A stretch of DNA of 61,041 nucleotides from Hyphomicrobiaceae bacterium (GTDB taxonomy: Bacteria; Pseudomonadota; Alphaproteobacteria; Rhizobiales; Hyphomicrobiaceae): positions 1 to 61,041 of the forward strand of contig JBFWWW010000001.1 of NCBI GenBank assembly GCA_050245975.1, given 5' to 3'. Numbering within the stretch: position 1 is the first letter of the stretch; every line of letters starts with the position of its first letter. The notes under the pieces were generated by a model, which ran no database searches, was not told where the DNA came from, and saw only the letters and a program-made list of their open reading frames with translations. Below, piece after piece: positions 23,537-53,996 of the stretch. The position numbers were made by a program, and so were the translations under genes.

Positions 23537-24346
23537 ATGGCCGATATTGGCGAACCCAAAGCCGACGCGGGATTGGGACAGTCCCGGCTGGCCGATGCGG
23601 CCTATTCTTTAGCGCGCTACATTCCGCTACTTTTGTTTTTTCTTGCGTGGGAGATCGTCGCCCGCAACTTGCCGCTCTTGCAAAACATGCTCCCGCCACC
23701 GTCTGAGGTTCTCTATGGAGGGTGGCAGCTGCTCAGACAAGGAACACTGCAACGCGATATCGTTGCCAGTCTCAATCGCGTAGGCGTTGCACTCGCCTTT
23801 GCATCTTTGATAGGGTTTCCGCTCGGCGCAGCTTTAGGGGCGTCCGCTCGATTTGCGTGGTTCGCCGAGCCTATTGTCAATTTTTTCCGGCCCATACCTC
23901 CGTTAGCCTGGATTCCCCTATCGATCCTCTGGTTCGGGATTGGCGACGCTCAGAACGAGTTCATTATATTTCTGGCAGCCTTCTTTCCGATCGTCCTGAA
24001 CACGATGGAGGGAGTTCGGGACGTCGATAGGCGGCTTATCCGTGCCGCATCCACATTGGGTGCCGGCCGGGTCGCCATCGCACTTACAGTGATCCTGCCG
24101 GCGGCGCTCCCCTCAATGTTCGTCGGGTTCAGGATTGGCACCGGCATAGCCTGGATGGCGCTGGTTGCAGGAGAACTCGTGGCAGCGACATCAGGTCTCG
24201 GTTTCCTGATAAGCCAGGGGCGTTTGCTGTACCGAAGTGATTTCATCGTTGTCGGGATGTTGATGATTGGGTTGATCGGGCTCTTGCTCGATGCGCTCAT
24301 TCGTTTCCTGCAGGCTCGCGTGACCCCGTGGAGGGCAGATCAATGA
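23537..24346 (+). CDS. NitT/TauT-family ABC transporter permease
   Basis: ATG 23537 (MADIGEPK). Polytopic, with an EAA-like loop (EGVRDVDRRLIRAASTLGAG). Confidence 0.8.
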   Translation: MADIGEPKADAGLGQSRLADAAYSLARYIPLLLFFLAWEIVARNLPLLQNMLPPPSEVLYGGWQLLRQGTLQRDIVASLNRVGVALAFASLIGFPLGAALGASARFAWFAEPIVNFFRPIPPLAWIPLSILWFGIGDAQNEFIIFLAAFFPIVLNTMEGVRDVDRRLIRAASTLGAGRVAIALTVILPAALPSMFVGFRIGTGIAWMALVAGELVAATSGLGFLISQGRLLYRSDFIVVGMLMIGLIGLLLDALIRFLQARVTPWRADQ

Positions 24347-25116
24347 CGGGCCTTGTATCCGCTGTTGACGTTCGTGGTGTAACAAAGCTTTTTGGAACAG
24401 GCGGAGCTGCGACGCGAGCCTTAGATAATGTTTCGCTCAGCATTGGGCCTGATGAATTTGTATGCATCATCGGGCCAAGCGGGTGCGGAAAGACGACGCT
24501 CCTAAATATGGTGGCGGGGTTTGACTTTCCGACTGGTGGCTCAGTGAATGCGTTTGGGCATAAAATTACCGGCCCCGGTTCCGACCGCACGATGATGTTT
24601 CAGGACTATGCGTTATTTCCCTGGCTGACGGTCACAGGAAATATCGAGTACGGGCTCAAGCGCAATGGAACGCCCAAGGCGCACCGCAACGAGATCGTTC
24701 GTCACTACATTGAACTTATTGATCTCGGCGGATTCGAGGACAAATATCCCCATCAGCTGTCGGGCGGAATGCGCCAACGCGTGGCGCTCGCCCGGGCGCT
24801 GGCTGTCAAACCTGCAATGCTGTTGATGGACGAGCCGTTCGCTGCTCTTGATTCATTCACACGCGAGCGCATGCAGGATGAACTGGTTCGTGTGTGGCAA
24901 ACCGAGCGCAAGGCTGTTCTATTTATTACTCACAGCATCGACGAAGCACTCAAGTTGGCCGACCGGCTTGTGATCATGTCGGCCCGTCCCGGTCGCATCA
25001 CTGAAACGATCCGGATCCAGGCAGATCGTCCGCGGAACACCTTGAGCGCCGAGAATGTTGCTTTGGCGCAGAAGATCCGGGATCTCCTCCAGCAAGGAGG
25101 CAATGGTCAGTGCTAG
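24343..25116 (+). CDS. NitT/TauT-family ABC transporter ATP-binding protein
   Basis: Walker A GPSGCGKTT, signature LSGGMRQR, Walker B LLMDEPF. ATGA overlap with the permease stop. Confidence 0.85.
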   Translation: MTGLVSAVDVRGVTKLFGTGGAATRALDNVSLSIGPDEFVCIIGPSGCGKTTLLNMVAGFDFPTGGSVNAFGHKITGPGSDRTMMFQDYALFPWLTVTGNIEYGLKRNGTPKAHRNEIVRHYIELIDLGGFEDKYPHQLSGGMRQRVALARALAVKPAMLLMDEPFAALDSFTRERMQDELVRVWQTERKAVLFITHSIDEALKLADRLVIMSARPGRITETIRIQADRPRNTLSAENVALAQKIRDLLQQGGNGQC

Positions 25117-25161
25117 CTGGTCCAGCCAATTGGCCCGCACATAACTCAAAATGGACGCTGC

Positions 25162-26793
25162 ATGACCGCTGATGAATACGACTTCATAATCGTGGGAGCC
25201 GGTTCGGCGGGAAGCGTACTTGCGACGCGGCTGGCAGCAAGCAAGCGCTTCCGCGTCCTTCTCCTGGAGGCTGGAGGCAGCGACGCCAGATTGTGGGTGC
25301 GTATTCCACTCGGCATTGGCCGAATTCTCAACGACAGCCGCTACATCTGGGAAGCGCAAACCGAACCTGAAGTCGAACTGCACGGCAATCGCATTAGCCT
25401 GCAAAGCGGTCGACTGATTGGCGGCTCCAGTTCCGTAAACGGCATGGTTGTTGTCCGCGGCCACCCGAAAAAATATGACGCTTGGCGCGACATGGGCTGT
25501 CCAGGTTGGGGATGGGAAGACGTCCGTCCCTATTTCAAGCGACTCGAGGACTGCTCGTTCGGAAATCCCGAGCTGCGCGGACGAGGCGGACCCGTTTCAG
25601 TTACGCGCCTTGGTGGCGATCCTCTGGCCGATGCCTTCCTGCAAGCCAGCGTCGCAACCGGGATTGATCGGACCGAAGATTACAATGACGAGCAAGCGGA
25701 GGGAGCTGCACACATCCAGCTAAACACGCGCAACGGAATTCGTTGCAGTACAGGTTTGGCTTACCTGAAACCCGCGCGCGCATTGCCCAATTTTCACGTC
25801 ACCACCAATGCCATAGCCGAGCGGGTTGTCTTTGACGGCAGGCGAGCCGTTGGAGTGTCATTCATTCAAGGTGGGAGGCGCACGAATGCGCGTGCCCGCT
25901 GTGAAGTCGTTCTTTGTGCGGGCTCGATCCGCTCTCCACAACTTCTGGAACTCTCGGGTGTGGGACAACCCGACAGACTGTGCCGTCTAGGCATCGATGT
26001 TGTGTCCGAGCTGTCGGGGGTCGGTGAAAACCTCCAAGACCATCTCATGCCGAGGTTCTGCTACGAATCCTAAATTGCTACTTTAATTACGATGGTGACC
26101 AGCCGATCGCGGCTTGCTCGCGAACTTGCTCGATATCTATTATTCAGAGCTGGAGCTGTTGCTACGCCCTCCCTTACGGCCCTCGCATATGTCCGAAGCC
26201 ATCCGGGTGTTGAGTGTCCTGATATCCGTCTTCAACTTGGGTTGACGTCCGGCACCAGCCGCCTTGCTGCCAACAAGACCGGCGGCCTCGATAGTTTTCC
26301 GGGATTCCATATCGGGGGCTATCTCCTCTATCCCGAATCCAGAGGCAGTGTTCACAGCCGGTCTACGGACCCGACCCAAGCGCCCGAAATTCGGGTGAAC
26401 TATTTGTCAAACAAACTGGATCGCGACGTCACCGTCCGGGTGCTGCGAATGATCCGCCAGATCGCATCAATGCGCCCGCTCAGCGATTTTATCGTCCGCG
26501 AAGTGCGGCCTGGAAGTGCCGCGCAGGACGATCAGGAGCTCCTGGATTTCGCCCGTCGAACAGGATCAACATGCTGGCATCCCACCGGCACCTGCAAAAT
26601 GGGCAACGGACCTGATGCTGTGGTTGACAGCAGCTGCAAGGTTCATGGTCTTTTTGGGTTGCGTGTGATCGATGCTTCGGTTGTTCCGCGCATGGTTGCA
26701 AGCAACACTAATTTTCCCACCATGATGATCGCCGAGAAGATGGCTGACGCAATCCAAAGGGAATTTTGTACGGGCGACGCGAAGGCAAACTAG
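25162..26793 (+). pseudogene. GMC-family (choline-dehydrogenase-like) FAD oxidoreductase interrupted by an in-frame TAA
   Basis: The N-terminal ORF has the FAD motif [18 protein letters not shown]. The C-terminal ORF has HPTGTCKMG and VIDASVVP. Both ORFs (25162.. and 26092..) are in the same frame and are separated only by the TAA at 26071..26073. Confidence 0.8.
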
Positions 26794-26810
26794 GTTCTGT
26801 GAGGTGCGAC

Positions 26811-27797
26811 GTGGCGCTGCGAACGCGGCTTACCAGGAAGTTGGGTATTCAGCATCCGATTGTATTGGCGCCGATGCGCGGAATGGCGGGCGGCGCACTG
26901 GCGCGAGCTGTCAGTCGTGCCGGCGCATTCGGCATGGTTGGCGTAGGCGGATGGCATCATTCTGATTCAGACATCATGGATCGCGAGCTTCCGCTGGTCC
27001 ATGGTGAGAAGTTTGGGATTGGTCTGATTACGTGGGCTCTTGCGAATAGGCCTCACTTACTTGCGGAGGCCATCGAGCGGAGTCCAACGGCAATTATGTT
27101 CTCGTTCGGGAGCCCAGCGCCTTATCTTTCAAAGGTGCGGGATGCCGGCATCCTATCAATATGTCAGGTTCAGACTGTTCGCATGGCTCGCGAAGCTTTG
27201 GATCAAGGAGCCGACATCATTGTCGCGCAGGGAGCCGAAGCTGGCGGACACGGGGGATCTCGCTCGACATTTCCACTTGTGCCGGCGATTGCGGATGCAG
27301 TGGCCCGAGAAAACTCAGATTCAATCGTCGTTGCCGCGGGAGGGATCGCTGATGGCCGGGGCCTCGCAGCGGCTCTTATGCTTGGAGCGGAAGGCGTGCT
27401 GATGGGCACGAGATTTGCCGCAGCTTTGGAGTGCAGAATTGACGCTTTCACTCAATCCATCATGGTTTCCGCGGACGGCGACGAAACGCTTCGTTCCAAC
27501 GTCTTTGATGTGATCCGAGAGGCGAACTGGCCGAAGGAATTTACGGGCCGCGCAGTTGCAAACGGGATGAGCCATCAGTGGGAAAGGTGCCAGGAAAAAT
27601 TGGAAAGAGACGAGGCGGCGAAGGAGCGCTTCCGTCAAGCATTTGAGAAGCGAGATAGAGAGTACTGGACCGTTTGGGCTGGCGAAGCGCTGGACCTGAT
27701 CCACTCCATCCCCTCAGCCGCAAGCATAGTCGAGAATACGATCAGGGAAGCGGAAGCTACCATTGCGGAACGTTGCCGCGCCATAGAACGGCTTTAG
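26811..27797 (+). CDS. nitronate monooxygenase (NMO / 2-nitropropane dioxygenase-like, FMN TIM barrel)
   Basis: LGIQHPIVLAPM, IVAQGAEAGGH and VVAAGGIADGRG are canonical NMO motifs. Start assigned to GTG 26811, after GAGGTG. Confidence 0.8.
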   Translation: MALRTRLTRKLGIQHPIVLAPMRGMAGGALARAVSRAGAFGMVGVGGWHHSDSDIMDRELPLVHGEKFGIGLITWALANRPHLLAEAIERSPTAIMFSFGSPAPYLSKVRDAGILSICQVQTVRMAREALDQGADIIVAQGAEAGGHGGSRSTFPLVPAIADAVARENSDSIVVAAGGIADGRGLAAALMLGAEGVLMGTRFAAALECRIDAFTQSIMVSADGDETLRSNVFDVIREANWPKEFTGRAVANGMSHQWERCQEKLERDEAAKERFRQAFEKRDREYWTVWAGEALDLIHSIPSAASIVENTIREAEATIAERCRAIERL

Positions 27798-27980
27798 TCT
27801 GCTCCGAATTGAGGCCTGAAGAAGCGGACTTGGACGCGGACACCGGACAGCGCCGTAGGGCGGAGACGTCTGCTATCTCTGCCAAGCAATCGTATAGGGA
27901 CCAGATGCTGATACGGGGCTGGGTCAGAGAGCATGGTCGATGCTAAAAACACCAAGCTGTACAATAAGATATACTGAAAT

Positions 27981-28001
27981 ATTGGCGGAGACGGAGGGAT
28001 T
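27981..28001. repeat. attL: 21-bp direct repeat of the tRNA-Ser(GCT) 3' end
   Basis: ATTGGCGGAGACGGAGGGATT at 27981..28001 is identical to 53902..53922, which covers the 3' acceptor/T-arm end of the tRNA gene. Confidence 0.85.
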
Positions 28002-41000: not shown

Positions 41001-41572
41001 GCGTGGGCCGCATTCCCGAAGGCCGGCGCAACGATGCTTTGTTCGCGCACATGCTCCGCGTTGCCAGAACAGCAGAGAGCATGGACGCGCTCCTTCAGGC
41101 CGCGCGCGCCTTTAATCGCGACTACCTGGAGCCGCCGCTGTTGGAGGACGAGGTCGAGCGGACTGCGGGCAGCGCGTGGCGTTATCAACGGGAGGGACGG
41201 AACTTCGTCGGCCAGGGGGGAGTGGTGCTCATCACGCATGAGGAACTGGACGATCTGCTCCGGCAGCGTCATGGCGCCGAAGCGGTTGCGCTCCTGGCCC
41301 TTCTCCGGCGCCAGCACGGTGCGAGGCAGCAGCCGTTCGCCGTCTCCTGCGACGCCATGGCCGCCGCGCGCACCATCGCCTGTTGGCCGAACCCGCGCAA
41401 ATACCGCCGCGCCCGAAACCTGCTGCATCGGCGCGGCCACCTGGAGCTGGTGTCGCCGTCCGGCACGAACCCGGACGGAACGTTCCGGCCCGCACAGTGG
41501 CGGCATCCATCGGCAAAATTTACCCGGAATAGAACCAACATCCCCGCCCCCTGCCCCCGAGGCAGAAGATGA
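40997..41572 (+). CDS. primase C-terminal (PriCT-1-like) domain protein
   Basis: IPEGRRNDALFAHMLRVAR...DEVERTAGSAWRY is the PriCT-1 pattern. ATGA overlap with the PrimPol stop. Confidence 0.65.
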   Translation: MSVGRIPEGRRNDALFAHMLRVARTAESMDALLQAARAFNRDYLEPPLLEDEVERTAGSAWRYQREGRNFVGQGGVVLITHEELDDLLRQRHGAEAVALLALLRRQHGARQQPFAVSCDAMAAARTIACWPNPRKYRRARNLLHRRGHLELVSPSGTNPDGTFRPAQWRHPSAKFTRNRTNIPAPCPRGRR

Positions 41573-42618
41573 ACGAGCGCGCGCGTGAGCATCCAAGACG
41601 CGGAGCCCCTATGGCCGTCGTGACGCCGGAACGCATCATCGTGAGGCTGGCGGCGGTGGCGTCTGCAGCATTGCTCATCATCAGCATCGCCATCACGTTC
41701 GAGGTCGGCAAGTCGTTCGGCCGCACGGACGTCGAGGCGCAGCTTTACGGCGCCGCCTGCGCGTTCGCCGATGCGCTCAAGGCGCTGTTGTTCACACTGT
41801 CGGCCTCTGCCTTCCGCAAACGCCGCCGCACCATGGCCATCACAGGGTTCGCGCTGTTCCTGTTGCTGACGACGTTTTCGTTCTCGTCGACAGTCAGCTT
41901 CGGGCTCGCGGCCCGCACTTTCGCTGGCGACGTACAGATCCTTCAGGCCGAACAGAACAAGTCGGCGATCTCCGCCTTGCGTGACGATCAGGGTGAGCTG
42001 GCGCGCATCCGCAACCGACTCCGCGAACCTGACCTGTCCATCCGCGAGCGTCGCGAACTCGAACGGCGTAATCATGATCTCGCCACCGCTGTTGCCGACC
42101 GCCAGCGTCAGCTTGCCCTTGCACCCCGCATTATCACAGCCACCACACAGTCGGACGCACTTGCCCGCATGCTAGGCGTCGCACCCGAAACCGCCACGGT
42201 CGGACTGGCCATGCTGCTCGCGCTGGCGATGGACCTGGGGCCAGGCATCGGTCTGGCGATTGCGACCGCGATGCTCGGTGCGGACAAGCCTTCGCGGCGG
42301 CCGGCGAAGGTTCGGGCCCTGCGGTCCGACCAGAAGCAGCAGCCGAAGGTCCGGCCGAATGCCGAACGGTCCAAGGTCGAAAGGTCCGTCAGCAATTTCC
42401 TGCACGAGCGCACGGTCAAGAGCGGAACTACTGCCGCCACTGAACTGTTCAGCGCGCATCTGACCTACTGCGCAAGCCAGGGCTTGCCGTCCATCACCCA
42501 GCGCGCCTTCGGCGACGCCATGCGGCAACTCGGATACGAAAAGGACCGGCGCACGGCATCAGGACGCGTGCGCTATCTGGGGCTGACGCTGGTCGAAGAA
42601 GCGCGCACCGCAGCCTGA
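41569..42618 (+). CDS. membrane / coiled-coil protein with a C-terminal soluble domain, unknown function
   Basis: Hydrophobic segments (AAVASAALLIISIAITF, ITGFALFLLLTTFSF, LAMLLALAMDLGPGIGLAIATAML), a central Arg/Glu-rich helical stretch and a conserved C-terminus (...FGDAMRQLGYEKDRRTASGRVRYLGL). ATGA-coupled to the PriCT gene. Confidence 0.6.
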   Translation: MNERAREHPRRGAPMAVVTPERIIVRLAAVASAALLIISIAITFEVGKSFGRTDVEAQLYGAACAFADALKALLFTLSASAFRKRRRTMAITGFALFLLLTTFSFSSTVSFGLAARTFAGDVQILQAEQNKSAISALRDDQGELARIRNRLREPDLSIRERRELERRNHDLATAVADRQRQLALAPRIITATTQSDALARMLGVAPETATVGLAMLLALAMDLGPGIGLAIATAMLGADKPSRRPAKVRALRSDQKQQPKVRPNAERSKVERSVSNFLHERTVKSGTTAATELFSAHLTYCASQGLPSITQRAFGDAMRQLGYEKDRRTASGRVRYLGLTLVEEARTAA

Positions 42619-44380: not shown

Positions 44381-45054
44381 CGTGATGATCAACATGAGCT
44401 GGCACGCATCCGACAAGACTGAGCGAACCAGACCTATCGGCTCGCGAACGCCGTGATCTTGATCATCGCAATCAGGATCTGGCTGCGACTGTTGCCGACC
44501 GCCAGCGGCAGCTTGAGCTTGCGCCGCGCATCATAACAGCAACGACCCAATCAGATGACCTGGCGCACATGGTGGGCCTCGCGCCGGAGATAGTGACGTT
44601 CGCGCTCTCTGGTCTCCTGGCCCTGAGCCTGGATGTCGGTCCCGCCATCGGATTCGCGCTCGCGGGCGCGCTTCCGAACCACAGCGAACCTTCAAGATCG
44701 AAGCCGAAGGTTCGTCCCCGGAAGCCACCTGCACCGCCGCCGATGTCAAACGCCGCCGCCCGACCGTCCGGCACCATGCCGAACCATGCAGTCCGGGTTG
44801 ATCATTCGAACATCGACCGTTCGGTGTCGAACTTTCTGCGCGGACACGCGGTTGGACGCGGAGCAATCGACGCAACCGAACTGTTCGGCACCTATCAGGC
44901 CTACCGCGATACCCTCGAGCTGGCACCCGTTAGCCAGCGATCCTTCGGCGACGCCATGCGCCGGCTCGGGCATGCCAAGGATCGCCGAACCGCATCCGGA
45001 CGCGTCCGCTATCTGGGCATATCGCTGACCAGGGAAGCGCGCGTCGCCGCCTGA
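44381..45054 (+). pseudogene. 5'-truncated, degenerate paralogue of the 41569..42618 gene
   Basis: The nucleotide and protein similarity is visible by eye (e.g. DRSVSNFL..., FGDAMRRLGHAKDRRTASGRVRYLGI vs FGDAMRQLGYEKDRRTASGRVRYLGL). In-frame stops occur at the 5' end (TGATGA at ~44384). Only ORF 44569..45054 is open. Confidence 0.7.
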
Positions 45055-45725
45055 CTGGCCGTCCCTCGCACGCCCCCGAAACTTCGGCCGAATATTCGCT
45101 CCCGACGACTGTTGAGTAGCGCTACCCGAATATCTTGCAAGCTTGAAGGACTTAGGAACAGCAAGCCGAATGTTCAATAAAATTCAAAGGATTGAACCTT
45201 CGAACAGTGCGGTCGGACCACATCCGGCGGAGCGTTCTGCCGGGCCCGCCGCGTCTGCAGGCTGGGGGCTCGGTCATGGTCCAATGGCGAGAGCCTACAC
45301 GACGACGCGAAGGCGGAATTTCCGTCAGCGCCACGCCGGCATTCACGGCCTCCGAAAAACGACCGTTTGTGGGAGGCTGTGCGAACTGGGGAAGACGCGA
45401 TTGACCCAAAGCTGTCCAAGCTCTTCGCGAGATGCGGATGGCCATATGCGTTCCGCACTCGTCGCAACATGCAGCCGGGATCTCGACCGGCCTAAACCGA
45501 TACAGGTGGACTGGTAGACAACGGCGCGGGATATCGTTCTCTGGCCGCGTTGGCTACACTGTCGTGTTCGCAGCCGCCCTCGCGCTTTCATGCAGTTTGC
45601 ATCGGTGGACACGTGCGTCTCCAGGCGCCATGATCAGAAAGGGCTTGCGGACTGCCTTGCAAAAATCCCACTGGGGCTCCATCTGGCGCCCAGACATCGA
45701 GAGCAGAACGTTGCTCCTCGCCAAC

Positions 45726-47363
45726 CTACGCTGCTGCTTCTCTCGCCATCGTTCCCAGAAGCGCGGGCGCAAACATCTGATGAAAGCGGACGCTAGACTC
45801 TGGAACCAGTTCGGAATCTTCAACTGTTGGCGTGTCGGTGTGCGCGTACCTAATTTTATCTTCTGGTGATTTGCGAACGCCTATGGCCCCGATCCGATAA
45901 AGCACCCGAACCATGCGCCTCACCAAATTGAACTCTGAGTTCTCGCTCGACAACAGATACGCTTCAGCAAACGAGTAGAATGGGTCGCGGCGGTTTTGAT
46001 CCTCAATGAGGATTGCTTGCACTAGATCTTGCAGCTCTGGCCCCTTGGACAGCACCTCAAGCGTCGTTGGCTGCGGGAATTTCGCGAAGTACTCGATTGC
46101 TAGGGGCATGCAGGGATAGGTCGTTGCCCACTCGTCCTTCAACGCGCCATATCTTCCGATGGAATATTCCCGCTCTACCTCCCTGACAATGCTTGCACTG
46201 ATTTCTTTCTTCCCCTCCGCCGCTTGCAAGCAGAGATTTACATAGGCGAGAAAATCGCGAGGTCGATGGAGCGTGCGGTCAACTATGAAACCAGCCAAAG
46301 TTTGATTCCCAATCTTGCGCGGGAAAAGGTCAGCGAAGGTCAGCTTGACGCCCCGCAGCTTCCTATTCGACATATGTTGAAGGCGCTCAGACACCATGTG
46401 CATCAGCAGAACTGGCGTCCACTTCAGTTCAACCGCGTAATCGTCATGCTTCTCTCGCTGAAAACCAGCGTCTTTAGTCTCTTGCAGAACTCGCTCAAGA
46501 ACATCTGTTCGCAACGCAACAACAATTTTTAGCTTCCGAATTTTCCGAAATCCACGAAGCGTCTCGATGAGCGCTCGGATCATGCGGAACCTGATTTTGT
46601 CGTCGACCCACTGCTCGTCCAATCGATCAATCAGGATGAAGTGCTTAACATTCTTGTCTTCATCATCAGCCAATAGTCCGACGAGGTTGGACAGCTGCGA
46701 TAATTGCTCAGCCGTTACTATCTTTCTAAATCGAACTCCGATCTCTTTCTTTTCTTCTGTCGTCAGATCTCGTGCGGAACTGGCCTTGCTTTCGTTGTAG
46801 CCAATCGCGCCTTCAAGTTTCTTCGTTATCCTCTGCATTACCTCCTTCATGTTCTCATCGATTGCGATCCAAAATTTACCTTCGTACTGCTGAAGGTAGG
46901 TCAACGCGGCGGCGCGCCTTTCGTCTTTTGAGATCATCTTCTCAAGACGCGAGAGAAACACCAACCACTTTTTTTGATCTTTGACGTTATAGCGAAGCCG
47001 TATGTACTCCACGCAAAGTACGTGCTTCCAAATCACCTGGAAGAGCAGGTCGATATCCGCGCCAACTTCATTGAGATACGTGAGCACAGTCGAGTTGGAG
47101 ATGTACTCCATCGATATGCTTATCGGATCGATCTCAGAGATTTTTCCGAAGTTATTCTGTATGCCGTTCAGGATGGCGGTCTTCCCGGCCCCGGTACGGC
47201 CGAGTGCGATCATTCTGGGCGAATCGAAATTCGTGAGGTCGTCGTAGGCAGGCGTGCGGATGAAGCACGACTGAAGGAATTCATCGTCCGCTTCCGCCGA
47301 GTTCTTGCCTATCGATAAGCCCGGCGGAAGAGTGTCTGCTGGGCCGGATGGAGAATCCGCCAT
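45726..47363 (-). CDS. stand-alone P-loop NTPase (545 aa), unknown function, AT-rich
   Basis: Walker A GRTGAGKT, Walker B HFILIDRLDEQW, downstream KIVVALRTDV and a RPRDFLAYVN motif, plus a long alpha-helical C-terminal half. Codon usage is visibly AT-richer than all flanking genes. Confidence 0.8.
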   Translation of the reverse strand: MADSPSGPADTLPPGLSIGKNSAEADDEFLQSCFIRTPAYDDLTNFDSPRMIALGRTGAGKTAILNGIQNNFGKISEIDPISISMEYISNSTVLTYLNEVGADIDLLFQVIWKHVLCVEYIRLRYNVKDQKKWLVFLSRLEKMISKDERRAAALTYLQQYEGKFWIAIDENMKEVMQRITKKLEGAIGYNESKASSARDLTTEEKKEIGVRFRKIVTAEQLSQLSNLVGLLADDEDKNVKHFILIDRLDEQWVDDKIRFRMIRALIETLRGFRKIRKLKIVVALRTDVLERVLQETKDAGFQREKHDDYAVELKWTPVLLMHMVSERLQHMSNRKLRGVKLTFADLFPRKIGNQTLAGFIVDRTLHRPRDFLAYVNLCLQAAEGKKEISASIVREVEREYSIGRYGALKDEWATTYPCMPLAIEYFAKFPQPTTLEVLSKGPELQDLVQAILIEDQNRRDPFYSFAEAYLLSSENSEFNLVRRMVRVLYRIGAIGVRKSPEDKIRYAHTDTPTVEDSELVPESSVRFHQMFAPALLGTMAREAAA

Positions 47364-47403
47364 CTCGAACCTCTCCTCAGTATCAGTTAAGCAAATTAGC
47401 TCA

Positions 47404-47720
47404 CTAAGAGAGTAGCAAAGAGGACGTTTGCACCAAAGCCGACGTAACTACTATGCTGCCCGTATCCACAAAGAAGTCGAGCGGGACTGGTTTGCGGGCG
47501 ACACGGGCACGGGCTGCCGACAGGCCGGCAACGCTCCCGGATGATGCCCCGCTCGAACTCCGCCAATGCAGCAAAGTATGTAAACGCCAGCCGCCTGACA
47601 GGAAGTCGGTCGGTATCGGTGGATTCCGGTCCCTTACGTTGGGCGCGCAGAGGAGTGGCTTGCAAAGAGCGTAAGCAGACCGGCGAGCCTTGCATTGGAC
47701 ATCCACCGGCGGCAATGGTG
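47404..47720 (-). pseudogene. serine recombinase (resolvase) remnant
   Basis: Fragments FAALAEFERGIIRER and, in a second frame, AGLSAARARVARKP. There is no catalytic N-terminal domain and the frames are broken. Confidence 0.5.
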
Positions 47721-48092
47721 GCTCGCGCGGCGGCCACGACTAAGTCAGTCTGGCGGCAGAGGAAGGCGGGGATCTGAACCAAATTCGCTACAGCCGCTAG
47801 GCGCTAGAGGGCAATCCTTTCATAATCGGCTAGTTCGTAGCGCATGCGCCGAGTGCCCAGTTTGGAAGCTTGAAAATCACAGGGGCCTGGCCAGACGCAA
47901 CGCTTTCGGACACGCCTCGATTGGACGCTTCCGGGTAGAAGCGGGCATCATGCAGCCGACAATCGCTGCTGAAACCGTCGAAAATGACCCGTCACGACTA
48001 TTCATAATTCGTTCCATGCCCGTCTGGTTCTCATCTCATTACGGTCGGGCTGCACGTGAAAGGACTAGGCACCATAGCTCAGCGCCGGTCGC

Positions 48093-48640
48093 CTATTCCG
48101 GCGTATTTACGATCAATCTCATCCCCGCGTCGAATGCGTCGAGTTTCCGCAGTTCACCGTGGCGGCGGTCCCATATGCCGGTAGCCAAATCATGCTCGAT
48201 CGCAGCCACGACCCGGTCGACGACCTCGGGCTGCATACGCGCAAATCCAGATGTCCCCTGGCGTGCCCGAGCATCCAACACACGGTCGGGGTGCGCCCAG
48301 AACGACATCAGCGACCAATCAGGGGTGTCCCGGCGCACAGGCAGTACCACAACGTGGGTGTTCCCCCCAACCAAGTGGCGAACTGCTCGATCGGCGGAAA
48401 GATCTTTCGATCAAGCTCCGCTACTTCGGGAAGGTACTCAGCCATCAGCCACATCGCCCCGTGGACCTCGGCATCGGCTGTCAAGACAACGATGGGTCCG
48501 GTCGCAACACGGCGCATCTCGCGAACCCCTCGCTCCTGCTCTTGGTCCCAGTGATGGACCGTGAGCACTGCCATGGCAGCGACGGACGGGCATCGCGCGG
48601 CACCGTTGTGCATCGACGGTGGTCAGGCCTAGACCCCACG
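48093..48640 (-). pseudogene. class I SAM-dependent methyltransferase remnant (frameshifted, motif I region lost)
   Basis: ORF 48308..48613 (AVLTVHHWDQEQERGVREMRRVATGPIVVLT) and ORF 48093..48374 (the C-terminal part) lie in different frames. Confidence 0.5.
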
Positions 48641-48870
48641 GTGTTCGTCCAAAACCAGGGCATCCAGCTTGATATAACGTGCAGACCCCCGACCAAGGGA
48701 CTGCACGACAAGATCCCGTATGCTTTGGCCGTCACATTGGAAGTTGGAATTACCTCTGCGATCGATGTCTATGCCGATTTCAATGTGCGTGTGCACGCTG
48801 GTGAGCCCATCGTCATTCGCCCAGGTGGCCGACCGCCTGAATGATTTGGAGAACGCCGACCGGGCATCGC

Positions 48871-49458
48871 TCAGTATTTGGAGTCGTCGAGCACGCTGCG
48901 CGCTTCCGGCCAACCCGCCGCGATCGCAGCCTGTATGTGCTCAATTAGCTCAGTCTTGGATGGTTGATTGCTTAAGCTGCCGGCGTTGATGCTATGCGTA
49001 TGGATGCCTGCCCTAAGTTCAGCGGGGGAAAGCTTCTCTAGCTCAATCCGCCGTTGCAACGGGTTAGCAAGTCGCAACACATCTTCGAGCGGGCGCCCAG
49101 GAGCTTTGGTTTTTCCTTTAGGCGCTTTCACCGCTTTCGGCGTCGGCTGCGCCTTTCCCGAAATAAGCAGGCTCAAATGACCGCGCAGAGCAGATGCCCC
49201 AAGGTCTTTGAGACCCGGCAGATTCGGATCGAGCTTCTTGGCTAGGGCGGGAATGTCCTTGTCAACTTGCCGCTTCAGGTACCAGACGATGAAATCGTCA
49301 CCTGCTGCCTTCTGTACTTCCTGATAGCGTTGCAGTGCAGCGCCTTTCAACGCGGTGGACTTTAGCCACTTTGCGATCGTGTCTTGAAACGCTGTGTTAA
49401 GGTCGGGCTTCGTGCGGATGATGTCCGCGAGGGCCTTGGCTAGCTGGGATCCGTCCAT
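48871..49458 (-). CDS. 195-aa protein with Lys/Pro-rich linker and C-terminal HeH/Rho-N/SAP-like motif
   Basis: ATG 49458 (MDGSQLAKAL) is preceded by GAGGGGGG. The C-terminal LSPAELRAGIHTHSINAGSLSNQPSKTELIEHIQAAI resembles helix-extension-helix DNA/RNA-binding motifs. Overlaps the ParA-like ORF by 62 nt. Confidence 0.55.
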   Translation of the reverse strand: MDGSQLAKALADIIRTKPDLNTAFQDTIAKWLKSTALKGAALQRYQEVQKAAGDDFIVWYLKRQVDKDIPALAKKLDPNLPGLKDLGASALRGHLSLLISGKAQPTPKAVKAPKGKTKAPGRPLEDVLRLANPLQRRIELEKLSPAELRAGIHTHSINAGSLSNQPSKTELIEHIQAAIAAGWPEARSVLDDSKY

Positions 49459-50380
49459 CTCTACCCCCCTCAGGTTTAAAGACCGTCCATGCCTCGGTGA
49501 CCAGCTTCTCGACGTGCTCATCCACGCCATCATATAGGCGATCGAACAGCGTCCTGTTACGAAGCTGATTGAGTCGACGCTGAATGGCACCTAGTTTCCG
49601 CATATTCCATTCGCGACGGTCCATCGCTTTCTGGAAGCCATCCATATAAGGATAGCCGCACTTCAGCACTTGGTAGCGCGGCTCGAGCTTGTTCTGTTCG
49701 CCACGCACGGCCTTCTCGAATTCGAGCGACGTCTTCGTTCGTCCGGTCATGGTCAAGAACACATGCGCGCGCTCACAGGCATCGCCAATTTCGAGTTCGT
49801 CTTCCATGTATTTCACGAAGGCGGAGAGCCCCTGCGTCCCCAGATTATTCGGCGCCGTCGGCAAAATGACTGTGTCGCTCAGGCCGAGGGCTGCTTCTGT
49901 GAAGATCGAAAAGCCCGGGGGACAGTCGAACAGGATCAAGTCGAAGAGGGACCTCTGCTCATCCAGCAGACCTTGCATTGTGTCGCGTGCAAAATTTAGC
50001 GCCGCATCTACCGTCTGCTTGGGCTTTACCAACAGTCGTCGCTCAAAACTGCGTAGCTCATAGTCTCCAGACATCAGGGAGACAGTGCTGGCAGGCGAAA
50101 AGTCCATCGCATCCTTCAGCACATACGCATCCGCGACGGTATTTGGGTGCGACAGACGCTTTTCAAGAAAGTGCTGTAGGCTGGTGCCGGTCCGCCAAGG
50201 AACGCTGTCTTTCGGCACGGCGCCAGTGAGAAGCGTGCTGGCATTGATCTGCGGATCAAGATCGATCACCAGCACGCGCTTGCTTTTCAGGGCCGCCGTA
50301 CCTTCCGCTAACGACAACGTCAGCGTAGTTTTTCCGACACCGCCCTTCATGCTCGCGATCGCCGCAACATGAGCACGCAT
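49397..50380 (-). CDS. ParA/MinD-family P-loop ATPase with a C-terminal extension
   Basis: Deviant Walker A SMKGGVGKTT, then VLVIDLDPQ and LILFDCPPG. Start ATG 50380, 2 nt after the upstream gene's stop. Confidence 0.8.
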   Translation of the reverse strand: MRAHVAAIASMKGGVGKTTLTLSLAEGTAALKSKRVLVIDLDPQINASTLLTGAVPKDSVPWRTGTSLQHFLEKRLSHPNTVADAYVLKDAMDFSPASTVSLMSGDYELRSFERRLLVKPKQTVDAALNFARDTMQGLLDEQRSLFDLILFDCPPGFSIFTEAALGLSDTVILPTAPNNLGTQGLSAFVKYMEDELEIGDACERAHVFLTMTGRTKTSLEFEKAVRGEQNKLEPRYQVLKCGYPYMDGFQKAMDRREWNMRKLGAIQRRLNQLRNRTLFDRLYDGVDEHVEKLVTEAWTVFKPEGGRDGRIPASQGPRGHHPHEARP

Positions 50381-50382
50381 AC

Positions 50383-50934
50383 TCAAAGCTCCTTGCCAAG
50401 CTGCGTCTGTACCCAATCTAAAAGATCCGGAAGGCGGTCTTCCAAGAAATAGTCTACCGCACGGGGAGCTGGATCGAACCGCTCACTGAACAACGCAATG
50501 TCGTAGTCAGTCTCAGGCGCAGCTGATTTCAGACGAATGACACCGATGCCGTGCTTTTGCGCGTGGTAGCGCACATCGGAGAGACGGTGCTCCCATGTCT
50601 CATCACTAGGACAGTGCACTACAACACTAGAGTAGTTCACATACCGCGTGTGCGCGAGAGCCTGGTGCACGGAGCTGACGTCGAAGCCGACGTCTGTCTT
50701 CAGTTCAAAACCGTACAGCTCCAATTCAGGCACTGCGCGTGACCGGTAGCGGCGAACGCAGCCCAAGATCACATCGGGACGCGACCATTGGCCGACAGCT
50801 GGACCGCCACGGGCAGTGTTTTCTACACGCCAAACCGGCGGCACGCCGGCAGGCTGCAACAAATCTCGTCCAAGCCTTGTCTTGAGGAGAACCGTGAACG
50901 GCTCTTCCAGCTGCGATTCCAATACGCCACCCAC
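50383..50934 (-). CDS. PD-(D/E)xK nuclease-superfamily-like protein (183 aa)
   Basis: RPDVIL ... ELYGFELK ... VHQAL has the spacing of the PD-(D/E)xK core. GTG start at 50934. An in-frame TAG lies in the ACTAGT target site just upstream, so the ORF is not interrupted by the IS. Confidence 0.5.
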   Translation of the reverse strand: MGGVLESQLEEPFTVLLKTRLGRDLLQPAGVPPVWRVENTARGGPAVGQWSRPDVILGCVRRYRSRAVPELELYGFELKTDVGFDVSSVHQALAHTRYVNYSSVVVHCPSDETWEHRLSDVRYHAQKHGIGVIRLKSAAPETDYDIALFSERFDPAPRAVDYFLEDRLPDLLDWVQTQLGKEL

Positions 50935-51002
50935 TGCCCGCCCCGTAGCAAACCGAGAGGTTCTGATTGTCGCGCAAGTGGCATCTGTTGGCGAGGACTA
51001 GT

Positions 51003-52048
51003 TGTGAACTTTCAGGAGGTTGTTCATTCGGTCCGGACCGGGGAAGCTGAAGTTGCGAGACACCAACTTCACACCGGGGGACCGAATGAACGTCCACAAG
51101 AATGCCTCTCTGACGCCTAGAGGTCGAGAGGACATGGTGCTGGCGGTCATGCGAGGCGGCCTGAGCCAGGCCGAAACCGCGCGAGCCTTCAACACCAGCC
51201 CGAAGACCGTCGCCAAATGGGTCCGCCGCTTCTGCCATGGCGGCGTCCAGGCCCTCCGTGACCGCTCGTCACGGCCCCATTCCCTGCCGAGCCAGACCCC
51301 GCTTGCCGTCTGCGATACCGTCGAGGCTCTGCGGCGACAGCGCCGCACGCAAGCTGCGATCGCGGCCGAACTCCGCCTGTCGCCGGCAACCGTCAGCCGC
51401 ATCCTCAAGCGCCGCGGCCTCAGCCTGCTCTCCGCACTCGAGCCCGCCACGCCACGCCCGCGCTATGAACGCGCTACGCCCGGCGAGATCATCCACATCG
51501 ACATCAAAAAACTCGGCCGCTCAATGCCGTCGGCCATCGCATCACCGGCAACCGAGCCCGTCAGAGCAATCAGCGCCAGAACGGCACTGCGCCCGGCTGG
51601 GAATACGTCCACGTCGCCGTCGACGACCACTCCCGCGTCGCCTTCTCGCAGATCAAGCCTAGCGAGAAGAAGGAGCCCGCCGTCGAGCACCTGATCGCCG
51701 CCGTCGCCTACTACCGGCGCCTCGGCATCGAAGTCGAGCGCGTCATGACCGACAACGGACCCTGCTATCAGTCGAAGCTCTGGGCGAAGACGTGCCGCAG
51801 GCTCGGCATCAAGCACCTGCGCACCAAGCCCTATACGCCGCAGACCAACGGCAAGGCCGAGAGATTCATCCAGACCGCCTTGCGCGAATGGGCCTACGCC
51901 ACCGCCTTCGAAACGTCAGACCAGCGACGCGACGAGCTGCCGCGATGGTTGCACCGATACAACTGGCACAGGCCCCATGCCAGCCTCGGCCAGAGGCCGC
52001 CAATCAGCCGTCTCCGCCTGACCAGGAACAACCTCCTGAGGAACCACA
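51003..52048 (+). mobile_element. IS481-family insertion sequence (1046 bp) with 6-bp target duplication ACTAGT
   Basis: Imperfect terminal inverted repeats TGTGAACTTTCAGGAGGTTGTTC / TGTGGTTCCTCAGGAGGTTGTTC. ACTAGT occurs at 50997..51002 and 52049..52054. The transposase stop TAG lies in the duplicated CTAG, as is typical for IS481. Confidence 0.85.
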
Positions 52049-52053
52049 ACTAG
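51086..52053 (+). pseudogene. IS481-family DDE transposase, reading frame broken
   Basis: The N-terminal frame (MNVHKNASLTPRGRE...IHIDIKKLGR) and the C-terminal frame (NAVGHRITGNR...VHVAVDDHSRVAF...TDNGPCY...TNGKAERF...) are offset by -1. The switch lies between the A6 tract (51506..51511) and about 51522. Confidence 0.8.
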
Positions 52054-52402
52054 TCTGCGCTTGGATCGCCTTCGCTGGCCCCGGAGTTCTCCCACGGCTC
52101 AAAACAACGGGTTGCTTTCGCTACTGATGGTCGCACCATCGTGACAGCGGGCTACGGGTGCCGCCCAACCGTCTGCTCGACCTCATCGTCCCATTCAAAC
52201 GTGATCTATATCGCCGCGTCGTAACGGAGTTCACGCCATACCTCTCGGGCGTTTGAAGCCCGGCAGTTAACTTGGCCGCCGATCATTTGCACACGGCCAA
52301 GGGCAGGCGCCGCGCGGCATGACGCCGCCACGCCCAAAAGGCAGAGCTCCAAATCGATCGCGCCCAGTACCGCACTTCCCGCCGGCAGATCGACTAGAGA
52401 AA

Positions 52403-53761
52403 TCACAAAATTTCAATAATATAGGGGTCCGTGCTTATATTCAGTCTGGGGTGCCGGGCAAGATTCGAACCCTCGTCCCGGAGGCAAGAGCAGCTAGCAT
52501 CCTTTCGGGACTTGATCTCCGCGGCCTCATTGTATCCACCGTAAACCGTTTCGACCGTCCCTTTGACGGCTTCACCGCCACGTGCGTGCTCGACCCACTG
52601 CTGCATCAGCCGCCGCCGCTCATCGAGAAAGTCCGACCGCAGGTAGGCCGCCCGCACCTTGTCTGGGATGACGTGCGCGAGCGCTGCCTCCGAAACCTCA
52701 TCCCGGACCTTGGCGACCTCGGCAGCCCACATCTTGAAGCTCGACCGGAAGCCATGGACCGTTGCCCGATCCGCGATGTCCATGTCGCGCAGCGCCTTGG
52801 TCAACGTCATGTCCGACAGCGGCACGTCATCATCGGTGCCAGGGAACACGAGATCGGATTTGCGGCCCAGGACGCGCACACGGGCGAGGACATCAACGCA
52901 TGGTGTAGGGAGTGGCACGACGTGCGGCCGCTTGGCCTTCATGCGTTCAGCCGAAATGGCCCAGAGAGCCGCCTTCTCGTCGATCTCGTCCCAGCGGGCG
53001 CCGCGCGTCTCGCCGCTGCGGCTGGCCGTCAGAATGAGCCACTCCAGCGCCAGCCGCGCCATGGTCGGCGGCAGGGCACGCAGCCGTACAACAAACGCCG
53101 GCACGTCGGCATAGGGCAGCGACCGGTGATGCCGGACAGCACGCGACCGGCCGCCAAGCTCCTGCGCGACACCGATGCAAGGCGAGGCCTGCTCGCGCGC
53201 ACCACGCAAGATCGCGGACTTGAACACGGCTTCGATGCGCTGGAGAACGCGGTGCGCCGTCTCCCGCTTGTCGAACCAGATGGGCGCCAAGATATCGATG
53301 ATCTCGTGTGGCTGGATCAGTGAGACAGCACGGCTGCCGATATGCGGGAAGACGTAGGTCTCCATGGTCGCGCGCCACTGCGCGCTGTGCTTGGGATTGG
53401 CGAGCGTCTGCGCCTTCAATGCGAAGAACGCCTCGAAGGCCTGCCGGAACGTCATGGCCCGCAGATTGCGCGCCTTGTCTTCAGCAACAAGATCGCGCCC
53501 TTCCTTGGCGGCGGACCGGATGGCGTCTGCGCGGCGCCGTGCGGCTTCGAGGGTCACGGCCGGATATGAGCCGAGCCCGAACTCACGGCGCTTGCCACGG
53601 ATCGTGATGCGCATGACCCAGCGTCGGTGTCTGGCGTCCGTCACAACGAAACGCAAGCCGCCACCATCCTCATGGGTCCCGGCTGTCCGGGTTGCCCGGA
53701 TCCTGGCGGAACTCAACCGATACAGACCGCGAACGCCAGCCACGCTGATCCCCCAATCCAT
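52403..53761 (-). CDS. int: P4-type tyrosine integrase (Arm-binding DUF4102-like N-terminus)
   Basis: EDGGGLRFVV..RRWVMRITIRGKRREFGLGSYPAVTLEAARRRA (arm-binding domain), and the catalytic region with HGFRSSF and LAHV...AYLRSD. Adjacent to the tRNA. Start ATG 53761 or GTG 53743. Confidence 0.85.
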   Translation of the reverse strand: MDWGISVAGVRGLYRLSSARIRATRTAGTHEDGGGLRFVVTDARHRRWVMRITIRGKRREFGLGSYPAVTLEAARRRADAIRSAAKEGRDLVAEDKARNLRAMTFRQAFEAFFALKAQTLANPKHSAQWRATMETYVFPHIGSRAVSLIQPHEIIDILAPIWFDKRETAHRVLQRIEAVFKSAILRGAREQASPCIGVAQELGGRSRAVRHHRSLPYADVPAFVVRLRALPPTMARLALEWLILTASRSGETRGARWDEIDEKAALWAISAERMKAKRPHVVPLPTPCVDVLARVRVLGRKSDLVFPGTDDDVPLSDMTLTKALRDMDIADRATVHGFRSSFKMWAAEVAKVRDEVSEAALAHVIPDKVRAAYLRSDFLDERRRLMQQWVEHARGGEAVKGTVETVYGGYNEAAEIKSRKDASCSCLRDEGSNLARHPRLNISTDPYIIEIL

Positions 53762-53769
53762 CCCCCAAT
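53748..53769. repeat. pair of ATCCCCCAAT motifs 12 bp apart (putative arm-type sites, attR side)
   Basis: ATCCCCCAAT at 53748 and 53760. Same motif, spacing and orientation as 28048/28060. Confidence 0.5.
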
Positions 53770-53903
53770 CGGAATGCGATGCCAGGGTGCACCGAGGAGC
53801 GTCAGAACACAAGTCGAACGCAGCAAACAGTTGAAATCAAGCGGCTATTTGGAACAATCCGGAGCATCGAGGCACGACCGGACACATTGCGATTTTTGGG
53901 GAT

Positions 53904-53996
53904 TGGCGGAGACGGAGGGATTCGAACCCTCGATACGCCTTTAGAGCGTATAACGGTTTAGCAAACCGCCGCCTTCAGCCACTCGGCCACGTCTCC
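53904..53996 (-). tRNA. tRNA-Ser (anticodon GCT), class II with long variable arm, encoded CCA
   Basis: The minus strand reads GGAGACGTGGCCGAGTGGCTGAAGGCGGCGGTTTGCTAAACCGT-[variable arm TATACGCTCTAAAGGCGTAT]-CGAGGGTTCGAATCCCTCCGTCTCCGCCA. The 7-bp acceptor stem pairs, the T-loop is GTTCGAATC and the anticodon loop is TTGCTAA. Confidence 0.9.

Follow-up and report, generated by a model that had tools for sequence, protein, structure and literature searches.

We analysed a stretch of DNA of 61,041 nucleotides from a Hyphomicrobiaceae bacterium, an alphaproteobacterium of the order Hyphomicrobiales (GenBank assembly GCA_050245975.1, contig JBFWWW010000001.1, positions 1 to 61,041; hereafter the window) and, within it, one gene of low GC content on the minus strand. 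A preliminary description, made from the sequence alone, had proposed that this gene is compositionally foreign, stands alone inside a tRNA island, and encodes a P-loop nucleoside triphosphatase (NTPase) that might act in phage defence. We found that the gene is an intact member of a known family of P-loop ATPases, named Sll1717, whose genes are AT-richer than their surroundings and horizontally mobile. Based on a validated anti-phage protein that falls within the same family, we believe, with moderate confidence, that the window gene, which is carried by a mobile island, most likely provides defence against phages as a single gene.

The ATPase gene, its family and its predicted fold

The gene is intact and is the AT-richest stretch of gene size in the window. 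The open reading frame (ORF) of 545 amino acids (aa) starts with ATG, and a Shine-Dalgarno sequence (GGAGAG) lies 7 nt upstream of the start. The GC content of the ORF is 0.512, compared to 0.622 for the window, and GC at third codon positions (GC3) is 0.61, compared to about 0.75-0.85 for the neighbouring genes. Of all 1638-bp windows along the 61 kb, the ten with the lowest GC each overlap the ORF (z = -3.2), and a 250-bp GC profile showed that the low-GC tract has the same extent as the coding sequence. The AT-richness that had been judged by eye is thus borne out by the computed values. Scans of the flanks for promoters, terminators, Rfam families and repeats gave nothing above chance, and there were no repeats that would bound a cassette. 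The gene and the parts of its product are as follows.

45726..47363, minus strand: intact Sll1717-family P-loop ATPase gene of the main ~545-aa clade (ORF, model NF047389, GC 0.512)
47262..47309, minus strand: N-terminal motif ahead of the P-loop, GKNSAEADDEFLQSCF, residues 19-34 (47-sequence alignment)
47178..47201, minus strand: Walker A, GRTGAGKT, residues 55-62, with invariant R56, T57, G58, G60, K61 and T62
46665..47090, minus strand: all-helical insertion of ~140 aa between Walker A and Walker B, residues 92-233 (DSSP of the AlphaFold2 model)
46614..46640, minus strand: Walker B, FILIDRLDE, residues 242-250, with invariant D246, D249 and W252 and near-invariant E250 (>=90%)
46503..46529, minus strand: KIVVALRTD strand, residues 279-287, with invariant R285 and D287 (strand 278-284 in the model)
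46221..46415, minus strand: helical lid, residues 317-381 (alignment, AlphaFold2 model), the segment best conserved with the clade of the anti-phage protein DS-41 described below
45729..46217, minus strand: C-terminal domain of ~160 aa, residues 383-545, helices plus a beta-hairpin (AlphaFold2, conservation)

The residues that are conserved in the clade are all present. We aligned 47 homologues of the ~545-aa clade and called a position near-invariant if it was the same in >=90% of the sequences. There were 52 invariant columns, and every one is kept in the window protein, which therefore looks functional. The four motifs that the preliminary description had listed (GRTGAGKT, FILIDRLDE, KIVVALRTD and RPRDF) are all there. 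RPRDF corresponds to residues 367-371 in the lid, where R367-P-R-D370 is invariant and carries a candidate sensor-2 arginine; the KIVVALRTD strand with R285 and D287 probably occupies the sensor-1 position. The motif GKNSAEADDEFLQSCF contains invariant G19, A23, E24, D26, L30, C33 and F34. In the C-terminal domain, R404, E411, W412, Y489, R490 and M530 are invariant and H508, R526 and H528 are near-invariant. The insertion is charged and soluble, with no segment resembling a transmembrane helix (maximum 19-residue Kyte-Doolittle mean 1.34).

The protein is a member of the Sll1717 family. It matched the NCBIfam model NF047389, 'P-loop ATPase, Sll1717 family', at 216.4 bits (E = 8e-64; cut-off 75), and the alignment ran from end to end (residues 18-535 on model positions 1-454 of 454). 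Five further members of the clade scored 195-227 bits. The window protein is an ordinary, full-length Sll1717 ATPase that the NCBI pipeline would name automatically, and it does not represent a new kind of system. The preliminary description had likened it to STAND, KAP and Sll1717-like NTPases; of these likenesses, Sll1717 was correct over the full length, KAP failed for want of a membrane-like insert, and the STAND models stayed below threshold.

The window gene is unexceptional among roughly 2,000 relatives. There were 357 homologues at E <= 1e-5, hundreds of them full-length at about 40% identity. When 1.84 billion cluster representatives were searched with a profile, 755 clusters had E <= 1e-30 and 2,200 had E <= 1e-10 (clusters of the ~545-aa clade being defined at 50% identity), and the clade is distributed patchily over many phyla. 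No fused domains were found in the top 150 cluster representatives, which are about 531-585 aa long unless truncated.

Several other identities were considered and rejected. Pfam gave only sub-threshold matches to nSTAND1, nSTAND3 and generic P-loop models, and the P-loop matches behind an ABC or AAA_23 reading were likewise sub-threshold. There was no TniB or IstB match in Pfam or NCBIfam at E <= 1 and no conserved transposase neighbour in 80 loci of relatives (described below), and thus the match to a housekeeping or TniB-like NTPase that had been named beforehand as refuting a defence role did not appear in Pfam or NCBIfam. A search of PDB sequences with the NTPase gave nothing but spurious NS1 matches (E > 0.3). 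The gene should not be annotated as a DNA-repair ATPase, a KAP or TniB-like NTPase, or a novel system.

The predicted fold resembles ORC/Cdc6-like and STAND-like ATPases. A full-length AlphaFold2 model built with the family alignment (predicted local distance difference test, pLDDT, 83.9; predicted template-modelling score, pTM, 0.81) has, in order, a P-loop alpha/beta core with a helical insertion, a helical lid, and C-terminal helices ending in a beta-hairpin. A Foldseek search against the PDB ranked RdrA (RADAR), BrxC (BREX), Cdc6/ORC and the archaeal proteins PAB2304 and SSO1545, with probabilities of 0.96-1.0 and weak whole-chain superpositions (template-modelling, TM, scores of 0.2-0.43). 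Based on this model, the NTPase is predicted to have a fold of the ORC/Cdc6-STAND-like branch of AAA+ ATPases.

The C-terminal domain is confidently modelled and has no significant structural relative. The C-terminal 163 residues modelled alone with AlphaFold2 gave a pLDDT of 92.3 and a pTM of 0.86, and Foldseek against the PDB found no significant match (best E = 0.6). The sub-threshold matches were mostly winged-helix proteins and NB-ARC winged-helix modules, which is suggestive only of a weakly winged-helix-like domain. Both Pfam and this fold search agree with the earlier remark that the C-terminal half contains no recognisable effector.

Relatives: base composition, genomic context and DS-41

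AT-richness is a property of the whole family. In all of the 75 loci whose flanks could be used, the family gene has a lower GC content than the DNA around it (mean ΔGC -0.146, range -0.034 to -0.268), and in 70 of 72 it is the lowest-GC gene-sized window of its ~20-kb locus. The shift holds over host GC contents from 37% to 70%, with a slope of 0.69 for gene GC against host GC. It is present both at synonymous sites (GC3 -0.225) and in the amino acids encoded (GC at second codon positions -0.107; more K, I, N and E, less G, A and P), each in 67 of 67 loci. Among 821 ORFs in the neighbourhood, only about 1% reach the AT-shift of the family median, several of these being fragments of the family gene itself, and restriction-modification (R-M) genes that adjoin the family gene have the GC of the host. 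Recent transfer alone does not explain a shift of this uniformity. Low GC relative to the genome was the strongest predictor of defence genes, other than embeddings, in DefensePredictor (PMC13092281).

The composition values come from loci L002-L084, most of which have the family gene at about 10001-11600. ORFs with an AT-shift as strong as that of the family gene were seen near it in a few loci, 85-2400 bp upstream and with a ΔGC of -0.16 to -0.29 (L052, 9122-9916; L040, 6563-7597; L083, 8739-9509; L016, 8625-9131; L numbers designate the loci of relatives). These may be co-transferred genes.

The family gene has no conserved partner. When 1,335 ORFs from around the gene in 80 species-representative loci were clustered all against all, no family kept a constant position; the largest clusters were present in <=10 loci, at scattered positions. 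Together with the lack of fusions in the top 150 representatives, this agrees with the earlier description of a stand-alone gene.

The gene is accessory and horizontally mobile. Members of the family are carried by 185 plasmids, of which 142 are conjugative, and we found no homologue in 50,697 phage records. We annotated 12 contexts with Pfam, the homologues having been picked only for long contigs and the window being included. In two of the 12, the gene lies beside restriction systems in integrase/VapE elements (a type I R-M system in one; a type ISP R-M system plus GmrSD in the other), and in four others, including the window, it lies in recombinase-bearing elements. Recognised defence genes were nearby in about 2-3 of the 12. 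In a sample of 139 proximal neighbour proteins (within 3 kb), PADLOC gave strong defence matches for roughly 8%: type I and type IIG R-M, JetC, DrmMI, AbiLi, ThsB, IetA and PDC-S40. Some neighbour matches are probably generic helicases or ABC proteins, namely PbeA (5 members, likely including 4 UvrBs) and AriA. A recombinase was recognised within 10 kb in only about 11% of the 80 loci.

Two observations concern the plasmid-borne relatives. On many conjugative plasmids of Klebsiella, Escherichia, Raoultella and Serratia (homologues H3-H20), the gene is broken into 2-3 pieces, with 33% identity to the window protein, and the pieces are annotated as separate hypothetical proteins (for example L092, 8962-10634, NZ_CP011600.1; the H3/L092 plasmid type is IncFIB/IncFIC). 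The broken gene resembles a widespread pseudogene, located close to the region for plasmid replication and partition. There were also 86 matches on Bacillus plasmids.

In some loci the family gene lies next to conserved genes of DNA metabolism. Five alphaproteobacterial loci (L013, L015, L022, L040 and L049, from Parvibaculum, Mycoplana, Devosia, Micavibrio and Brevundimonas) have the gene 54-1450 bp past the 3' end of uvrB, in both orientations and in at least two independent arrangements. The five uvrB genes are orthologues with 65-76% identity, the adjacent family genes being only 31-58% identical. Four other loci (L029, L051, L054 and L066, from Gammaproteobacteria, Betaproteobacteria, Acidobacteriota and Eremiobacterota) have the large subunit of ribonucleotide reductase (RNR) upstream and co-oriented; these RNRs are mutually only 22-36% identical. 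By a rough estimate, about 0.1 cases each of uvrB or RNR adjacency would be expected by chance, and the observed numbers far exceed this. Our preferred reading is that these are insertion hotspots flanked by conserved core genes.

The Sll1717 family already contains a protein that protects against phages. DS-41 (clone AAA2, WP_033812887.1) is a single protein of 502 aa from an Escherichia coli strain of the ECOR collection, reported in the DefensePredictor study (Science 2026; PMC13092281). It lowers the plating of phages Bas63, Bas19, Bas3 and Bas25 in E. coli by about 1.4-3.6 logs, and its nearest known defence relative by HHblits is Avs1B (PMC13092281). We used the 399 residues that are printed in the supplement. 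With these 399 of 502 residues, DS-41 scored 92 bits on the Sll1717 model NF047389, above the cut-off of 75, and 326 bits on its own model, NF053860. Its close relatives are labelled 'P-loop ATPase, Sll1717 family' by NCBI and UniRef. DS-41 passes the Sll1717 model and its clade carries the name, and thus the named family already holds a validated single-gene anti-phage protein. Reciprocally, NF053860, 'DS41_1 anti-phage protein', was the second NCBIfam match of the window protein (56.7 bits, E = 2e-15, residues 21-389).

The host island and the flanks of the gene

The window gene is part of a tRNA island, as had been proposed, and lies between the tRNA-Ser/integrase end and a module encoding a primase-polymerase (prim-pol) and a PriCT domain. 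The other features of the island that we could define are as follows.

53904..53996, minus strand: tRNA-Ser(GCT), the integration target
52403..53812, minus strand: tyrosine integrase (Pfam domains Arm-DNA-bind_3, Phage_int_M and Phage_integrase)
47528..47602, minus strand: serine-recombinase relic of 25 residues, PVRRLAFTYFAALAEFERGIIRERC (tblastn), directly upstream of the NTPase gene and on the same strand
44416..45051, plus strand: N-terminally truncated paralogue of the island gene at 41569..42618, 55% aa identity

An exact direct repeat of 21 bp supports the tRNA island. The repeat is present at the 3' end of the tRNA-Ser gene (53902..53922) and again at 27981..28001, and the two copies would delimit an integrated element that could be as long as 26 kb. 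The left 12 kb of this putative ~26-kb element (28.2-39.7 kb) contains metabolic genes at host GC: a beta-lactamase-family protein, AtuA, an ABC transporter, a thiamine pyrophosphate (TPP) enzyme and an aminotransferase. The stretch from 27981 to 53922 may be either one element or the product of tandem accretion. A second stretch of lower GC (0.54-0.58), at 21000..28000 of the window and directly left of the att-like repeat at 27981, carries genes for the permease and ATPase of an ABC transporter and also a 421-aa ORF without annotation. It may have entered the same site in an earlier insertion. One database contig (L001) is the same sequence as 44480..53453 of the window and therefore provides no independent context.

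Relics lie on both sides of the NTPase gene. The decayed paralogue that had been placed at 44381..45054 is real (44416..45051), is a copy of the island gene at 41569..42618, and is unrelated to the NTPase. The intact gene encodes 349 aa and has no Pfam or PADLOC match; its truncated copy is 1.8 kb downstream. On the other side, a resolvase remnant had been proposed at 47404..47720. Nothing was detected there by Pfam, or at E <= 1e-3 when the whole window was searched. A focused search, using as query the intact small recombinase in the same position on an Acidiphilium plasmid (L091), found the 25-residue relic PVRRLAFTYFAALAEFERGIIRERC, which matches the LAEFER motif of serine recombinases (E = 3e-5 in a 1.5-kb search space). 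The proposal was thus borne out only for this short segment.

In two relatives the upstream recombinase is intact. A small serine recombinase (~181-184 aa, resolvase/invertase type) is encoded on the same strand as the NTPase gene and 131-246 bp upstream of it, both on the conjugative Acidiphilium plasmid (L091; recombinase 8177-8722, NTPase 8968-10602) and in a genomic island (L175; recombinase 9315-9869, NTPase 10001-11653). Recombinase and NTPase may form a two-gene mobile module that is rare among the 80 representative loci.

The DNA between the NTPase gene and the integrase gene contains several other ORFs. A ParA/CbiA-like ATPase (49397..50416, minus strand) lies between two small proteins with no family match (50383..50934 and 48871..49590, both minus strand), and the first of these, of 183 aa, has a D...E-x-K pattern that by eye recalls PD-(D/E)XK nucleases. 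At ~48093..48613 on the minus strand, two overlapping short ORFs in different frames have translations resembling the C-terminal part of a methyltransferase split by a frameshift; neither piece had a PADLOC match. Two ORFs of 224 and 102 aa at 51020..52053 on the plus strand (GC 0.63-0.66) look by eye like a frameshifted DDE transposase of the IS481/IS3 type, the second reading as the C-terminal end of an 'rve' domain. This pair forms an insertion that separates the integrase from the remainder of the island.

Proposed function and comparison with known systems

We propose that the protein is a self-contained, NTP-driven switch ATPase of the ORC/Cdc6-STAND-like AAA+ branch. The N-terminal P-loop module, with its Walker A and B motifs, R285, and the lid with R369, would bind and hydrolyse ATP. 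The helical insertion and the lid would allow oligomerisation into a ring, as in RdrA, BrxC and ORC, and ATP binding and hydrolysis would control this oligomerisation. The C-terminal domain would sense an infection cue, either a phage protein or a DNA or nucleoprotein structure. As it has neither an enzymatic effector domain nor a partner gene, the ATPase, once assembled, would act as the effector. Our guess is that it would bind or remodel phage DNA or replication complexes in an ATP-dependent way, in the manner of ORC/Cdc6; alternatively, runaway ATP hydrolysis could cause abortive infection. The ~545-aa clade is a branch of a family in which, in the case of DS-41, an ATPase that lacks a nuclease, protease, TIR or other effector domain, and that has no partner gene, suffices for phage resistance. 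The C-terminal domain, with its confident model, its invariant residues and its lack of a known structural relative, would provide a handle on such an effector-less mechanism, and the stand-alone architecture another.

We infer the defence role from DS-41, which gives the phage-defence reading of the preliminary description experimental backing within the same NCBIfam family. Several observations weigh against that reading. DS-41 belongs to a clade that is remote from the window protein, and only the NTPase and the lid can be aligned between them. With 57 bits against a cut-off of 370 on NF053860, the window protein is not a member of the DS-41 equivalog, and pairwise BLASTP between the two proteins gave no significant alignment. 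Hidden Markov models specific to each clade cross-matched at 20-30 bits, only over the segment from Walker B to the lid, and homology between the C-terminal domains of the two clades was not detectable. Comparison by hhalign with the single DS-41 sequence gave a probability of 51%, and profile-to-profile comparison of the two clades 91.5%, in both cases for the lid only. Because the pairwise and clade-level comparisons are weak, the link to DS-41 rests mainly on the broader NCBIfam models. Phage protection has been shown for WP_033812887.1 alone, and given how remote the DS-41 clade is, a defence role for the window clade is something that we infer.

The genomic context also weighs against a defence role to some extent. 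Six of the 12 annotated contexts are lone insertions among housekeeping genes. Distal control neighbours (>7 kb away) also match DrmA, MTase_I, mad3 and PDC candidates in PADLOC, and the comparison of proximal with distal neighbours in PADLOC and Pfam is qualitative only, being based on family counts and not on per-protein tables. The association with defence islands thus appears to be real but modest. PADLOC recognised no further defence gene in the island of the window, and the PADLOC-DB 2023 matches of the window NTPase itself were weak (PDC-M28C, 3.9e-5; PbeC; mad8). We found no searchable paper that uses the name 'Sll1717', and the name is also absent from the DefensePredictor supplements. 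Finally, adjacency to uvrB and RNR may mean that the gene is linked, in function or in regulation, to dNTP metabolism or DNA damage.

This last point leads to a different explanation, in which the protein is an accessory ATPase of DNA metabolism or repair, ORC/Cdc6-like and tied to nucleotide-excision repair or dNTP synthesis, with no role in immunity. The adjacency to uvrB (5 of ~80 loci) and to RNR (4 loci) is recurrent, uvrC is 5.7 kb away in another locus (L174), and both the ORC/Cdc6-like fold and the sub-threshold winged-helix matches of the C-terminal domain would suit such a role, as would the names 'DNA repair ATPase' and 'ATPase involved in DNA repair' that some sources use, perhaps because of the same reading of the uvrB/RNR link. 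We consider this explanation fairly unlikely. The association accounts for about 11% of the loci, and the orientation relative to uvrB varies and is therefore not operon-like. The gene is always compositionally foreign beside uvrB or RNR genes at host GC (for example 0.37 versus 0.63). The family is rare and patchy, with the 755 clusters at E <= 1e-30 coming from 1.84 billion representatives, and it is also found on conjugative plasmids and in integrase and R-M islands. Core genes that flank insertion hotspots would explain the pattern with no functional link. It is also unlikely, in our view, that the gene serves the element that carries it, as an ORC/Cdc6-like replication or maintenance factor, an exclusion or addiction function directed at competing plasmids or islands, or the cargo of a resolvase-NTPase module. 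The window island does encode a prim-pol, a PriCT domain and a ParA-like ATPase, there is an intact upstream serine recombinase in L091 and L175 and a relic in the window, and the family is on 185 plasmids, mostly conjugative, and in none of the 50,697 phage records. However, about 89% of the representative loci have no recognisable recombinase within 10 kb, no replication or partition gene recurs in the 80 loci, and in half of the annotated contexts the gene stands by itself among housekeeping genes and cannot, in such a place, be replicating or maintaining an element. In addition, DS-41 protects against phages when cloned alone (PMC13092281).

Two further explanations appear much less probable than these. 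The NTPase might be part of a multi-gene system resembling PDC-M28, together with the neighbouring ParA-like ATPase (49397..50416) and the two small proteins that flank it (50383..50934 and 48871..49590). All of these genes are on the minus strand and have a somewhat low GC, the NTPase weakly matches PDC-M28C (E = 3.9e-5), and the ParA-like neighbour weakly matches PDC-M28B (E = 1.2e-6). The latter match is limited to residues 13-54, the P-loop, the genes are separated by about 1.5 kb of decayed DNA with resolvase and methyltransferase-like relics, and neither a ParA-like protein nor any other partner recurs in the 80 loci. The paired matches are probably coincidental, and we consider such a system very unlikely. 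The gene might instead be a non-functional passenger, recently acquired and heading to decay, with an ORF that is intact by chance. Gene relics lie on both flanks, on enterobacterial IncF-type plasmids the homologue is split into 2-3 fragments, and there are frameshifted copies in two loci (L019 and L073). We find this highly improbable for a gene with a full frame of 545 aa, a canonical Shine-Dalgarno sequence, all 52 of 52 invariant positions and a confident AlphaFold2 model.

The extreme base composition could itself be functional. We think it quite unlikely, though compatible with a defence role, that the ~545-aa Sll1717 clade is an effector-less immune or DNA-surveillance ATPase for which this composition serves a purpose. 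The uniform shift, the slope of gene GC against host GC and the host-like GC of adjacent R-M genes are difficult to account for by recent transfer only and would, on this reading, reflect selection that keeps the gene AT-rich. One possible purpose is xenogeneic silencing (by MucR in Alphaproteobacteria; by H-NS, MvaT or Lsr2 elsewhere), from which the gene would be released only when infection or DNA damage perturbs the silencing. Repeated, independent placement beside uvrB and RNR, which are damage-responsive core genes, would fit such conditional expression. The family-wide AT-shift may be relevant to the way in which cells silence defence genes that could be toxic to them.

Returning to the reading that we prefer, a single-gene anti-phage factor, we compared the window protein with known systems. 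Like KAP NTPases, it has a large insertion in the P-loop domain between Walker A and Walker B. The transmembrane helices that define the KAP insertion are not present in the window protein, and Pfam gave no KAP match. With no membrane-like segment, a KAP-type architecture is therefore excluded.

The resemblance to STAND proteins, including Avs, is faint. The sub-threshold nSTAND1 and nSTAND3 matches (16.3 and 14.2 bits; cut-off about 27) cover the region from Walker B to the sensor, homologues have faint nSTAND3 and AAA_16 matches, an arginine is in the putative sensor-1 position, and the C-terminal domain superimposes on the NB-ARC winged-helix module of 8bv0 with a query-normalised TM score (TMq) of 0.36, which is not significant. 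With regard to the NBD-HD1-WHD core of STAND proteins, whose winged helix has a conserved histidine in contact with the nucleotide, near-invariant H508 and H528 are present and the winged-helix and NB-ARC matches were sub-threshold (best E = 0.6). In contrast to STAND and Avs proteins, the window protein is just 545 aa long, with one compact C-terminal domain in place of TPR, WD40 or LRR repeats and no N-terminal or fused effector, and there were no Avs models among its PADLOC matches. Judged by the model scores and by the lack of a repeat sensor or effector domain, the window protein would probably fall outside this group.

RdrA and BrxC are the defence ATPases that the predicted structure most resembles. 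RdrA of RADAR (PDB 8hr8, 8fnt) was the top Foldseek match (E = 4e-4, probability 0.99). Between its Walker motifs this Cdc6-like AAA+ protein carries a helical insertion termed the 'crown', and its C-terminal domain, which is helical, uncharacterised and without known homologues, has been proposed to be a sensor (PMC9994260). A large helical insertion between the Walker motifs is common to RdrA and the window protein. Unlike the window protein, RdrA is about 830-850 aa and works with a partner, the adenosine deaminase RdrB, and the whole-chain TM score is only about 0.2. We found no RdrB-like or other conserved partner and no PADLOC match to RADAR for the target or the island genes, and the gene is not part of a RADAR system. 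BrxC/PglY of BREX (PDB 9zll, 9zdx), also an ORC/Cdc6-like defence ATPase, matched with E = 1e-3 and a probability of 0.99 (TM score about 0.26-0.31). BrxC works in a 6-gene BREX cluster with BrxB and PglZ, whereas the window gene has no brx or pgl genes nearby; its neighbours are the integrase, the ParA-like ATPase, the prim-pol, a VWA protein and relics, and membership in BREX was rejected. A literature search for RdrA, BrxC and STAND together found nothing.

The likeness to Orc1/Cdc6 and to the archaeal ATPases PAB2304 and SSO1545 (7tjh_I, 7jgr_A, 1w5t, 2qen, 2fna) is structural only. These share with the window protein an AAA+ base, a helical lid and a small C-terminal, possibly winged-helix, domain (Foldseek probability 0.98-1.0; best target-normalised TM 0.43). 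The window protein differs in having the extra ~140-aa insertion and a helical linker of ~85 aa, and it is encoded in bacteria by an AT-rich accessory gene that has no connection with origins of replication. It did not match the Orc1/Cdc6 family model TIGR02928, which gave a weak P-loop match to one homologue (20.6 bits; cut-off 181).

We also compared the layout of DS-41 with that of the window protein. The C-terminal domain of DS-41 is shorter (about 110 aa, compared to about 160 aa here) and has different invariant residues. Both are single-gene, effector-less P-loop ATPases of about 500 aa that score above the NF047389 cut-off. Both have an AE-x-[DE] motif near the N-terminus at the same distance from the P-loop (~32-33 residues in the clade consensus), a long helical insertion with about 190 residues between Walker A and Walker B, a Walker B of the form hhhhD+LDE, and the lid motif (S/R)PR(E/D).

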